Assembly: GCF_006345805.1 (NCBI RefSeq)
Contig: NC_043006.1
Span: 30,194,001-30,258,000, forward strand
Origin: Octopus sinensis
Lineage: Eukaryota
Direction of reading: 5' to 3'
Length of the DNA stretch: 64,000 nt
Part shown: piece after piece, positions 3,747 to 59,217 of the stretch
Layout of the letters: each line of letters begins with the position of its first letter
How positions within the stretch are numbered: position 1 is the stretch's first letter
Notes under the pieces: model-generated
The model's input: the letters and a program-made list of their open reading frames with translations, nothing else
Told to the model about the DNA's origin: nothing
Database searches by the model: none
Translations under genes and position numbers: made by a program

Positions 3747-3872
3747 CTATAAAAGGTCTGGGCTGGCAAGTGGAATTACTTGACAAATTGAATGATGTCG
3801 ACGTTTTTTCAAGATACCACGATGTGTACTGAGGTATTCTCGGAAGAAGGCCACAGTACTGTTCCATCCTTG
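3747..3872 (-). CDS. Patatin/EF-hand phospholipase, last coding exon 12 (QGWNSTVAFFREYLSTHRGILKKRRHHSICQVIPLASPDLL*)
   Basis: Acceptor gtcttgcag, TAG stop at 3747-3749. xGxxxTxxF is the final patatin helix. Total CDS 1620 nt. Confidence 0.85.
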   Translation of the reverse strand, partial: QGWNSTVAFFREYLSTHRGILKKRRHHSICQVIPLASPDLL

Positions 3873-4503
3873 CTGCAAGACACAAAATAAACCAATATTA
3901 GATTCTTCAAAGAATTCAAAGATTTAAAAGAATCGATACAGATGAACAGAAACATATACACACACATACACATTATGCAGGCATTGGCACACTTAAAGCA
4001 CAAATATATACCACATGAAATACACTGTCTATATATCTGTGATTATGTAGATATTATACACACAACTATACACTGCATTAAATATACTGCTTACATCTTT
4101 GATATCTGATCTGAATATTTACAACAGATGTAGCTTGCTAAAAGCATCCAAGTATAAGGTGGTTGTGTTAAATTGAGGGTGGGGTGGATTAGCTCTATTA
4201 TTCAGAAACAGGAGCAGTCCTTCTGATAGGCTTTCCTACAAAGCTTCTGTCCACTAAATTTCACTTACAGGCTATTGGCTGACTCAAGGGACACTTGGCC
4301 CAATGTGCCACACAGAATGATCCCAAAACAATGGTATCTTGGAGCAAACTTAACTACTCAACTGTGTTTATGGAGTTGCTTGTTGACATATGTCACATAA
4401 TGAGCCATCTTAAAGGTAGCTCTACCAGTAAACTTACATTCCACTGATGGGGTTTAATAAAACCAGAACATGTCCACAGTTGTCTACCCAAGCTTACACA
4501 CTC

Positions 4504-4753
4504 TACACACTTAATGCAGTGAATCAATTAATTTAACTTACATGCATAACAATAAAAAAAATATCAACCTAATTGTGGTCAAGAAAGGCTAAGGGGATAA
4601 TTGCAATACATAAATTAATAAAAGTTAATAAAAAACAGAAGAATTTAAGTATTGTAATTATCCCCTTAGCCTTTCTTGACCACAATTAGGTTGATTTTTT
4701 TTTATTGTTATGCATGTAAGTTAAATTAATTGATTCACTGCATTAAGTGTGTA
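4504..4753. mobile_element. Foldback MITE with about 105-bp inverted arms
   Basis: 4504-4609 is the reverse complement of 4649-4753 with about 2 differences. TA at both ends. Confidence 0.85.
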
Positions 4754-5074
4754 AGCATTGACTTAACTATTAGTTTATTTGCTGAAGAGACTCCAGGGTA
4801 CTCCCACCCCCACTATTAGTCATATCACTTTCTTTTATTCTCAGGCAGGTAAAGGTAGGAAGACAGTCATAAATATCATAGCCTTTTATCCCATTGCTAA
4901 ATTTCTGGGTGTGTTTATGCTTCAGAATAAAGCAAAACTAGGTTTGTTATAAGCCTCAAAGTTTCTCACTTTTACATTTTCTGACCTTTTCTTTTTTTGT
5001 GTGTGTAAGTTGTGAGAATATGAGGAAAGGTGAAAGAACTAAAGAACTGGGACAAAATATAGAAGTTCTATTAC

Positions 5075-5170
5075 CTTAATCAGGAACTGTTTGTCTTCGT
5101 CTTCCAAACAGAAGTCTGTGGTGTCAATATAACCTGTGTTTATACCAACTGTACGATGTTTATCTCGGTC
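5075..5170 (-). CDS. Patatin/EF-hand phospholipase, coding exon 11 (DRDKHRTVGINTGYIDTTDFCLEDEDKQFLIK)
   Basis: Acceptor tattgtag, donor AAG|GTAATA, 96 nt, phase 0 to 0. RTVxINTGxIxTTDF resembles the C-terminal strand/helix of bacterial-type patatins. Confidence 0.88.
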
Positions 5171-55431: not shown

Positions 55432-55850
55432 TTGCGCTCACCTTCTCTTCTATTAGTAAACTACTACAAAGGCAAAGGAGATGTCTTAAACAGAAGCAGC
55501 TATGGAGGAATCAAACTGCTAGACCAGGTTACGAAGGTCAAAGCACAATTGATCCAGGACAAAATAGAGTTAGATGCAATTTGGCTTTGTGTTTGGAAGA
55601 GGCACCACAGATGCTATGTAACCAGTGAGGCAAGTGCTGGAGAAATACTTGGCTTGGAAGAAACAACTATTTCTAGCTGTCATTGATTTGGAGACAGTAT
55701 TTGAAAGGGTACCTCATTCAGTAATTTGGTGGTCAGTGAGGAATCTAGGTGCAGATGAATGAATTGTAAGGATGGTACAAGCTTTGGATAAAGATGCAGT
55801 AAGCAAAGTGAGTTAATGATTTCAGTGATGAATTTAGTGTGAAGGTAAGG
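55432..55850 (+). pseudogene. RTE reverse-transcriptase fragment
   Basis: YKGKGDVLNRSSYGGIKLLDQVTKV, then a DLETVFERVPH-like segment. Confidence 0.6.
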
Positions 55851-56432
55851 GTCCATGTGTGTGTGTGTGCATGTGTTTGTAAATATTTATGTGTGTATGT
55901 TATTGTTTATACATGTGTGTGAATATTTTGGAAAACAGCTAATTTACATTTGACAGATATTTGTCCTCATCTTATTTGTTGTTAATACAATGTTTTGGCT
56001 GATATACCCTCCACCCATCACCAGGTCTCTTGGGAAACTTTCGAACCTGGGTTCTCATTCCTAAGGTATTTTTCGATGTTATTATTATTGTTGTTGTTAT
56101 TATTCAGGTCACTGCCTGGAATCAAACTTGGAATCTTGGGGTTAGTAGCCTGCACTCTTAACCACTACACCATATGCTTTTGTCATGCTAGTATTTAAGT
56201 CTGCGTGCATAAACATGTTTGATGTATGGATGTGTGAGTAACTCAGTAAATTTTCACAGACTTCTCCACACAATTTTTGTTTATATGTCTAGATGTGCAT
56301 GAATTATTATGAATGCTTATGTACACACACACACACACACACACACACACACACACACATACACACACAGACTGAATCTGACGTAAACTCTCAGTCTAAA
56401 AGAAATAAACATGATTCATGATGACATCTTAC

Positions 56433-56651
56433 CATTAAACTCCCACAATATGCAATGCCTTTATTTCCGCCACCTTCAAACACCAAATTCTCAAAGGGAT
56501 AATCGTAGTGTATTAGGGTTCCAAGTTGTACTTCACCCGAATCAGGGACATCACTTCGGTCCACAAACTGTATCCTTTCCTGCTGGAGGGTCTCATTATA
56601 TTCAGATTTAAACCACCTGGAATGGGAACCACACTTCACAGTATTTCCCAT
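56433..56651 (-). CDS. Patatin/EF-hand phospholipase, coding exon 1 (aa 1-73, MGNTVKC...FENLVFEGGGNKGIAYCGSLM)
   Basis: Contains the patatin oxyanion loop LVFEGGGNKG. Acceptor tttcag lies 4 nt before the ATG (exon starts 56655, so a 5' UTR exon lies upstream). Donor ATG|GTAAGA, phase 0. Confidence 0.9.
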
Positions 56652-59217
56652 ATTTCTGAAACAAAAATGTAAATGTAAACATTTAGTTTAATTGTTTGGA
56701 TGGTAATAATTTTAGCTGACTCTATACTATTGGAATGTAGGATTCCCAGATAATGAGGAAAACCTGCATGTTTTCTTCAGCAATGTCACTTATTGTTTAT
56801 GTTTTAGTTTTCTAAACTATGTCTAGCTAAACATTAACATTAAGTTTAGTAAAGACAACATGGCAATTCATTAAAACTCCATATATTTCCTAACTTCTAT
56901 AGTGCTACTGATGAAGGGCATCCAGCCATAGGAACCATACCAGGACAGACAATTGAAGCCTGGTGCAGTTCTCAGCTGACCAGCTCCTGTCAAACTGTCC
57001 AACCCATGTCAGTATGGAAAACAGACATTAATGATGATGATGAGGAGGATGACGACGACTTCTAAGTTGTATATTAGCATCTGTACCTTTCTGCCAGTCA
57101 CACTAGTTGTCATATTGTCAGTACAAAAGCAGGTTATTCTCAATCACAGAGGAATCTGGAGGATTTCAACATAAAATGTTTCCCATGGAAAGAGAGATGA
57201 GGATGATACAATAAAGAATTATGACAAGAATCATATTCATTAATGAAAACAATTTAATTATGGTAAAAGAGCAGCAACAATAAGATTCTTTCTATCTGTG
57301 TGTCACTAATGTAATTTGATTATGTTGATGTTGATTGGAGGAACACAAATTCAGCTGAGCTTTTAATTCAAAACTATTTTTATTGTTTCCAACTTTATAT
57401 TGTCACTTCTATAAGACCGGAATGGGAGTGGTTTGTCTGGTGACTTGACAGTAAGAGTTCATTGGAATGATTCGGTTGATTCTTGCACCTTGGTAGTTGA
57501 GTTGTGTCACTGGGGTCACTGTTACTTTGGTCATCATTATAATTCATTTTGGCAGCCACAGACACTGTTCCAGTCTACTCTGTTAGTAGCTAAAACACAT
57601 TAATTATGTAGCTGAAGTCCTTATCAGAAACAGCACACCAGAGGGAAAATGCTTAACTAGATCCTGTTTGTCACAAGTGTCTTAGTGACACCATCAATAA
57701 CTGAGCAAACCACATTTGTATTGTTTTTTCATCAGATACAGTGATCTAGGTTCAATTTCTATGTGTTTTGAGACTGCTAAATATTTCTGCTATAGAATTG
57801 TGAGATTATAATAGATCTTGAGCCAACAGTATTTAAATATAGACGGAAATATTAAAATCGTCAAAATATAATTGTTTGTATATTAAACAATTATTCATTC
57901 ATATCTGTTCACCTCGCAAGGTTTAGAGCATTGTCCAGATTAGGTTGTTATTAACTGGTCCTCTGGCTAAGTTTAATTAAAGTTTACAAGAATTATACTA
58001 GGTCACTACTGACCCAACGAAGATGTTCAGAGAGATAAACAGTTAAAATGTCTTTCTGATAAATCAAACACTATCCTGTCTATTTGTGTCTGCATATAAC
58101 AAAATGATGTCTAGTATTTGCAACAAGATCAACAATTTTGAGTGGTGGAGAATAGATGAGACCATCGTCCCCATGACTTAACTGGCTATTTATTTTACTG
58201 ACCCTGACAAAATGAAAATCAAAGTTCACTTTGGTGAGATTTGAACTCAGAACATACAGAGCTGCATAAAATGCTACTAAGCATTTTTTCCTAGCTGTGT
58301 TTTGGGAGGGTCATTATGCCAATGATAATAAACACATGCACTGGGTCAATATCACTTCTTTATTATTAAATATCTAACCAACCAACTAGTCAATCCTTTG
58401 TTTGATGTGTTGGTTAAACAATCAATTGGTCAGTTGTTTGTGAGAGTCCTTTCATTGCTATTCACAACCTTTTCAATGGAATGCTCTCTCTCTTCAAAGT
58501 CTGCCAGCTTGCCACCACCCTGGGTTTGCTTAGAAATATAATATTAGTCACAATGTGTGAGGTTGGTGGAGTTAAAAGGCATAAAAGAAATCAGATCTGT
58601 GAGTGTCAAAATATATATGTCCATTTGACAAGTTTAATCACACACATGCATGTGTGTAAATAAGCTCTAAGTCCTTATATCAAAACTTGATATTGTAGTA
58701 AAGATTCCTGGAGGGAGTAGTCTAGCACTTAACTGTGGCTGTTGCTTATTATCAGTGTCTCGACAGGGGCACGGCTGATCTATGAACCAAATAAAAGAGT
58801 GTTAAATAATCTTAATTAAACCCACAACAGCAACAACAGAAACTTGTTTCCATGCAGGAAACAATAAAAGCAAACCCATTGTAAGCTGTGCTTCATATCT
58901 TCTGGCTGGGAAGAGGGCAGTGAACTTTCAGGGGATTGAATGTCCTGACTTCCTGTTGCAGAGGGTGTATACTGCATTTCCAAAAGTATTGATCTACTTA
59001 CTAGATACTGCAGCACTGTAATGGTGTACTTCACTTATGGCTGAAATATTCTTCAAACTGGTCGAACAGAAATAGCTTTCTGGTGATGTGTATTGATATT
59101 CATTAATTATTCAATGAAGCACTTTTATTTGAAAGCAGTCACCAGTATCAGCAGCAGCAGCAGCATTTGTCTTTCTGTGATGTTTTAGGTTTGACAGCTT
59201 TGAAATAAATTCTTTAA

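Follow-up and report, generated by a model that had tools for sequence, protein, structure and literature searches.

An octopus patatin-like phospholipase gene with an inserted EF-hand pair and its putative switching by calcium

How an octopus comes to carry a lipase resembling the bacterial effectors ExoU and VipD, and what would control such an enzyme, are the questions raised by LOC115216501, a twelve-exon patatin gene of Octopus sinensis. It lies on the minus strand, on which the initial annotation was silent, of the window analyzed here, the whole 64,000-nucleotide (nt) stretch from position 30,194,001 to 30,258,000 of contig NC_043006.1 (assembly GCF_006345805.1; C10 in our numbering of this 2.7-Gb genome). 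The reading we favor, to which as a whole chain we assign a probability of roughly 55%, is that the gene encodes a membrane-anchored phospholipase A of patatin fold that would be switched on by calcium via an inserted EF-hand. The interest of the locus is this predicted switch together with the distribution of the family across domains of life; the gene itself is a member of a wide, old family and not a captured effector.

The gene is intact and spliced, and its assignment to this family is near certain. Its exon boundaries were obtained by mapping the top database match, Octopus XP_029641795.1, back onto the window; joined exactly, they give a coding sequence (CDS) of 1620 nt with GT..AG at all 11 introns and a single stop at its end, encoding 539 residues. 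The exons and motifs reported by the initial annotation were all reproduced, namely GGGNKG at residues 60-65, GASAG at 89-93 with the nucleophile Ser91, AVRMSMSIPG at 205-214 and DGG at 233-235 with Asp233. Its claim of an intact catalytic dyad and oxyanion loop agrees with the score against Pfam Patatin (PF01734; 103.9 bits, cut-off 27.7), with the Gly-rich loop, GxSxG and DGx all present. Block III reads MSxxxP, with Met for the Ala of the bacterial-type ASxxxP. In the structure model (predicted local distance difference test score 82) the patatin sheet is completed by strand 5 (residues 286-292) and strand 6 (473-477). The protein has two inserts specific to the family, a GWWLS segment and a stretch of about 140 residues comprising a helix and an EF-hand pair. 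The protein has no hydrophobic signal peptide.

The likeness to the ExoU/VipD group proposed earlier was upheld. A profile of the patatin core matched VipD (E-value 8e-25), ExoU (2e-23), PlpD (2e-17), CapE (8e-12) and CapV (6e-5) far better than iPLA2beta (1.4), while potato patatin was absent from the matches at E<=10. ExoU, VipD and the vertebrate PNPLA1-9 subfamilies (PMC2435558) were outside all trees and were compared by profile and fold. A quick tree to which six partial octopus PNPLA-like rows (labels assigned by motif) and seven other patatins of Cystobacter had been added kept the family separate with a Shimodaira-Hasegawa support of 96, with long branches present; nesting within an animal PNPLA clade of PNPLA2, PNPLA6/7 or PNPLA8/9 type, the outcome that would have spoken against the earlier proposal, was not seen among these rows.

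The initial description of the protein had the patatin motifs right and missed both the EF-hand insert and the Met-Gly start. The insert is located between strand 5 and the helix preceding strand 6, and in the model consists of a long helix followed by two helix-loop-helix units. It is reflected in the distance from DGG to strand 6, which is 239 residues in the octopus protein compared to 84-111 in short relatives (motif found in nine of 16). The second EF loop (residues 407-418) carries Asp, Asn, Asn and Glu at ligand positions 1, 3, 5 and 12 and adopts a helix-loop-helix in the model, while the first has degenerated in the three cephalopod proteins compared and is near canonical in other members. 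An EF-hand_6 match covers residues 399-425 (E 5e-5), and the homologues of Haliotis, Nematostella and Trichoplax score above the Pfam EF-hand cut-off. Model residues 393-484 superpose on the EF pairs of calmodulin, S100 and polcalcin with middling statistics (Z about 7-7.8, root mean square deviation (rmsd) about 3, 66-78 residues aligned).

According to PMC12871566, the stretch after strand 5 is a regulatory segment, the VipD region 371-408 comprises a strand, a regulatory loop and a helix (section 5), and the VipD loop 376-386 is a lid opened by Rab5. Octopus residues 473-510 (strand 6, lid loop and last helix) align with VipD 371-408 as a weak third alignment stretch. Since these elements match those of VipD and the insert precedes them, the EF-hand pair would sit directly upstream of the lid.

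Both features recur in the family. The patatin exon alone retrieved proteins of sponge, Trichoplax, cnidarians, molluscs, one annelid, one bryozoan, one hemichordate and one sea urchin, giving a set of 119 rows (isoforms and near-copies included; one bacterial-looking row dropped), 91 of which align over all key sites. The second EF loop is canonical in 86 of these 91, and Ser and Asp of the dyad are each kept in 90. A Met-Gly start was found in 48 of 87 homologues of this set; Gly2, a candidate myristoylation site, is present in the octopus protein, in Argonauta and in a tandem paralogue. Gaps in coral, hemichordate and snail gene models coincide with octopus exons 9-10, which suggests that these intron positions are old.

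In the favored reading, Gly2 would be myristoylated and, together with Cys7 and a basic helix, would tether the enzyme to a membrane at its cytosolic side. In the resting state the active site would be covered by the loop 478-488, much as that of VipD is by its lid. Binding of Ca2+ at the second EF-hand would shift the helix leading into strand 6 and open the lid, a single chain thereby doing what Rab5 does for VipD, and Ser91 could then free a fatty acid and a lysophospholipid, as signals or for membrane remodeling.

Several observations weigh against this proposal. The octopus EF-hand scores 23.2 bits, just below the Pfam cut-off of 25; in its second loop Asn replaces the usual Gly at position 6, and its first loop is the degenerate one. 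The alignment of the lid region to VipD is not significant by itself. At the N-terminus, position 6 is Lys, where myristoylation favors Ser or Thr. A strict rule for the second EF-hand is passed by just nine of 41 full-length proteins in an amphioxus-dominated set and by 15 of 33 bacterial proteins, so the calcium sensor is dispensable in some branches. Calcium could also inhibit and not activate, and for every family member activity, substrate, Ca2+ binding and localization are predictions from sequence.

One alternative, unlikely but with a real if minor share of the probability, keeps the enzyme as an active lipase but gives the EF-hand module a structural or docking role and leaves activation to a partner protein (a small GTPase, ubiquitin or a catalytically dead paralogue), which is how VipD and ExoU are switched on. 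Protein contacts control each of the four PNPLA enzymes covered in PMC12871566, the first EF-hand is degenerate in octopus, the second is lost in most amphioxus copies, and the octopus genome holds paralogues without the catalytic Ser. Against partner activation, the ligands of the second EF-hand persist in 86 of the 91 homologues, a set that runs from sponge to mollusc, and also in members from protists and bacteria, a conservation that is hard to explain without metal binding. We regard it as improbable that calcium binds and instead inhibits or relocates the enzyme, or that the substrate is a neutral lipid, a lysophospholipid or a sterol ester in place of a diacyl phospholipid. Patatin folds act on many lipids, and in three proteins the module is joined to a sterol-sensing domain; yet the closest solved sequences are phospholipases, and activation is the simpler reading of an insert that precedes an auto-inhibitory lid.

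The slimmest chance is left for an immune or cell-death effector equivalent to CapV of the cyclic-oligonucleotide-based anti-phage signaling system (CBASS), or for a venom phospholipase. Weak matches to CBASS and anti-phage lipase models point in this direction, and in amphioxus and molluscs the family shows large expansions with dead copies, a pattern like that of immune families. The scores, however, are far under the cut-offs (21 against 200 bits; 24 against 400); for the CBASS model NF041079 the former value belongs to a paralogue, and the octopus RefSeq protein was not listed at E<=0.01. The bacterial members moreover lie among housekeeping genes, as detailed below, and the lack of a hydrophobic signal peptide makes secretion into venom unlikely.

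The initial annotation had inferred that the gene would represent an uncharacterized, intron-rich animal lineage of the ExoU/VipD-like subgroup, either anciently transferred or lost in vertebrates. Our literature search, whose coverage leaves out most subscription journals, found no study of a patatin plus EF-hand architecture. PMC5127104 lists proteins of sea urchin, sea anemone, Trichoplax and lancelet in cd07207, so animal members of that group are not new; PMC3688537 treats cd07207 from the bacterial side, and its supplementary tree S2 may include eukaryotes. Restriction to animals did not hold, since members were found in the kinetoplastid Papus ankaliazontas, the diatom Thalassiosira exigua, an MMETSP transcript and bacteria. 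The family has apparently been lost in vertebrates, in agreement with the earlier suggestion: no vertebrate is named among the best 120 of 241, 167 and 171 homologues in three lists, and no tunicate, arthropod or nematode among the best 120 of the 167 matches to an amphioxus query, absences that rest on names in word-indexed lists and are not proof. The amphioxus query retrieved a large expansion in Branchiostoma, most members of which lack the EF ligands (P0205 and relatives), and its list extends to short bacterial patatins. One model of this expansion, P0360, has an ApeC domain and is possibly a gene-model fusion. In P0164, P0238 and P0225 a sterol-sensing/Patched domain is fused N-terminal to the patatin(-EF) module.

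A bacterial patatin plus EF-hand cluster was pointed to by the Atlas, and a pattern-based scan of 185,579 species genomes yielded 39 bacterial loci, which is a lower bound; several bin names among them look unreliable. The full-length bacterial homologues are 34-39% identical, intronless, GC-rich, stand-alone genes of Myxococcota (including a complete Cystobacter chromosome) and Actinomycetota. Their gene neighborhood is not conserved across phyla and consists mostly of housekeeping genes (39 neighbors). Among 72 neighbors from 18 loci (124 picked), eight matched PADLOC models, e.g. kinases and ATPases, and none matched a nucleotide cyclase model. Bacterial members P0358, P0399, P0412, P0434, P0440 and P0470 carry the JGI label 'arachidonate 5-lipoxygenase'; the domains of P0358 are patatin and EF-hand alone, so this label was likely mis-transferred. 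A scan of viral contigs gave no relative and phage records gave weak patatin matches alone. Foldseek against viral models returned giant-virus patatins (E 1e-16 to 1e-17), and the nearest outgroup in the trees is formed by short Met-Gly patatins; a viral link is no more than a lead.

The main tree (73 rows, 194 core columns, LG+G4; seven unalignable, gappy or redundant rows dropped) placed animals, protists and EF-hand bacteria in one clade (support 100/97) apart from the short patatins, with the EF-hand bacteria as one clade (100/98), and did not resolve the base of the family. The family thus stands beside short patatins, of bacterial and virus type, that belong to the ExoU/VipD-like branch. 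In constraint tests a clade of eukaryotes and a clade of animals were each neither rejected nor shown (approximately unbiased P values of 0.42 and 0.23, respectively). This is an old family, already diverse in eukaryotes, of which one bacterial branch was gained or given by horizontal transfer. That a gene of bacterial effector type entered the animal stem in one transfer appears improbable. The identity of the full-length bacterial homologues and the unrejected animal clade would fit it, but protist members exist, the bacteria form one narrow clade inside or beside the eukaryotic diversity with few loci in the genomes scanned, and ExoU and VipD lie much further off than the full-length bacterial homologues. 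Derivation from an effector is contradicted by the nearest bacterial kin, which are stand-alone non-effector genes, and by the absence of effector-specific domains from the octopus protein. The VpdC effector model scored 67 against 1000 bits, and the structural alignments end before the host-binding domains.

The gene model (Table 1) can be compared with contigs from runs that we guessed to be RNA, none of the runs listed by the search being on record as such. Because these contigs show joints at intron ends, spliced molecules are present. The junction check proposed initially was answered in part. Four of the 11 junctions were seen directly as joints: 7/8 in four of four runs and 5/6, 6/7 and 11/12 in three of four each, with a silent substitution adjoining junction 6/7. 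In one 1907-nt contig, assumed to be a single record from its matching run, length and depth, exons 11 and 8 are separated by exactly 270 nt, the length of exons 10 and 9 together. Junctions 1/2 to 4/5 rest on identity to the RefSeq protein and on the proteins of Argonauta and other cephalopods, which align without gaps. An AG acceptor directly before 56655 indicates one or more further 5' exons upstream of coding exon 1, and by length arithmetic the contigs hold 207-533 nt there.

Residues 1-529 are identical to XP_029641795.1 (P0001, offset 55). The RefSeq model differs in a 55-residue N-terminal extension and in its last splice, which instead joins 3780 to about 1828. The contigs do not break at 3780 but run on into the 3' region (as far as 3222 in X5), and no 3780-1828 joint was among the joints listed from them; from this read-through, the stop at 3747, in the last exon of the 539-residue model, is better supported than that of RefSeq. 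Of the RefSeq extension, the first 41-42 residues match a repeat found at many loci, beginning in a copy about 67 kb upstream, and residues 41-56 had no match in the window or in locus L051. As the main start it was rejected, being repeat-derived and absent from Argonauta and the tandem paralogue, whose proteins begin Met-Gly-Asn at the same ATG as the 539-residue model.

Table 1. Exons of the octopus patatin gene and other features of the window (window positions; residues of the 539-residue protein)
Feature	Position	Strand	Content
Exon 1	56433..56655 (CDS 56651-56433)	minus	residues 1-73; ATG 56651, Gly2 (candidate myristoylation site), strand 1, oxyanion loop GGGNKG 56474-56457
Exon 2	48252..48399	minus	residues 74-123; GASAG, nucleophile Ser91 at 48348-48346
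Exon 3	39948..40084	minus	residues 123-168
Exon 4	37579..37813	minus	residues 169-247; block III SMSIP, catalytic Asp233 at 37621-37619
Exon 5	30877..31007	minus	residues 247-290; family-specific GWWLS insert, strand 5 begins
Exon 6	25982..26085	minus	residues 291-325; regulatory-segment insert begins
Exon 7	24019..24103	minus	residues 325-353; basic start of long helix toward EF-hand pair
Exon 8	18956..19024	minus	residues 354-376; first EF-hand, loop degenerate in cephalopods
Exon 9	15217..15327	minus	residues 377-413; entering helix and first half of second EF-hand loop (407-413)
Exon 10	10843..11001	minus	residues 414-466; remaining EF-hand loop (Glu418) and helix back to catalytic core
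Exon 11	5075..5170	minus	residues 467-498; strand 6 (473-477), loop 478-488 matching VipD lid
Exon 12	3747..3872	minus	residues 499-539 and stop; C-terminal patatin helix; internal donor 3780 is that of the RefSeq model
Likely long 3' untranslated region	1400..3746	minus	several contig pieces, short gaps; contains RefSeq alternative last exon ~1828-1802
Broken LINE-type elements, introns 2 and 1	41875-44780, 50386-51715	minus	endonuclease and reverse-transcriptase pieces
Short intronic repeats	6100-6800, 19100-19450, 22300-22850, 25000-25400, 26500-26700, 31100-31500		very high summed depth from RNA-type contigs
Array in intron 10	7500-9400		1.9 kb, degenerate, CA-rich; GC-rich core ~7950-8140

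The short intronic repeats of high depth are abundant short interspersed nuclear element (SINE)-like sequences; the LINE-type elements are of the long interspersed class. Further copies of the gene occur elsewhere in the genome. The tandem paralogue (G000:C10:30134200-30168400; L040-L046), about 25 kb past the low end of the window on the same strand, has the same 12-exon layout, is about 74% identical, keeps the dyad and has a Met-Gly start with two Cys, which makes it a candidate for dual acylation. Four more family members were located, three at G000:C11:22893000-22933900 (L047-L049) and one at C1:118012000-118021900 (L050). In the three C11 copies Gly replaces the catalytic Ser and the oxyanion loop reads GCG, so they are likely pseudo-enzymes; Ser-less proteins similar to them form a clade. 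An intronless 356-residue patatin open reading frame on a small contig (L052, G000:C8693:70188-71258), possibly a retrocopy, resembles what we take to be PNPLA2/ATGL.

Extended beyond octopus, the proposal becomes tentative. It is conceivable, though we lean against it, that the family is a hitherto unrecognized class, spread across eukaryotes, of self-contained phospholipases A that are gated by Ca2+ and anchored by myristate, a host-side counterpart of ExoU and VipD in which the EF-hand pair would replace the protein activator. Such a class would serve Ca2+-triggered fatty-acid release in invertebrates and protists; vertebrates would have lost it, myxobacteria and aquatic actinobacteria would have received it, and paralogues without catalytic function would tune it. 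If the calcium switch is real, gating by a built-in sensor would add a novel way of controlling the patatin fold, compared to the protein contacts of the enzymes in PMC12871566, and would offer a simple model for the opening of a patatin lid; molluscs, cnidarians and amphioxus would gain a candidate source of calcium-triggered lipid signals invisible in vertebrate models. The surprise is limited because the gene is an ordinary, already annotated member of a large family that had been placed in cd07207 in passing.

Among known systems, cd07207 (Pat_ExoU_VipD_like, with YqhO-like and mimivirus R571-like proteins) shares the Gly loop, GxSxG, the bacterial-type block III and DGG with the octopus protein, whose relatives are labeled 'YqhO-like' or 'R571' in databases; compared to cd07207 as described in PMC5127104, the octopus family adds the two inserts and a frequent Met-Gly start. 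The best solved match is Legionella VipD (PDB 4AKF, 4KYI), by sequence (1.6e-14) and with a fold Z of 26.7 (rmsd 4.6, 265 residues aligned) that is within about 1 of that of a CBASS lipase. Both proteins have the order strand 5, regulatory segment, strand 6, lid and C-terminal helix. Identity is about 25% over aligned residues, though, and the alignment stops at VipD 440, before the Rab5-binding helices, in place of which the octopus protein, encoded by a host gene with 11 introns, has its EF-hand pair. Pseudomonas ExoU has the patatin core in common (4e-10; Z 19), but ExoU 100-476 alone aligns and its chaperone-binding, bridging and membrane-localization domains are unmatched. The CBASS lipases CapV and CapE share the fold (Z 22-25), whereas by sequence the octopus family is far under the CBASS family cut-off and the scanned neighbors of its bacterial members include no cyclase. 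The Ser-Asp dyad and fold are also common to vertebrate PNPLA1-9 and cPLA2 (iPLA2beta Z 20.9, cPLA2 Z 16), from which the octopus family differs in the weak match of iPLA2beta to the core profile and in a clade separate from the octopus PNPLA-like genes. Within this fold class cPLA2 is the known Ca2+-dependent animal phospholipase A2 and senses calcium through a C2 domain, whereas the octopus family would do so through EF-hands.

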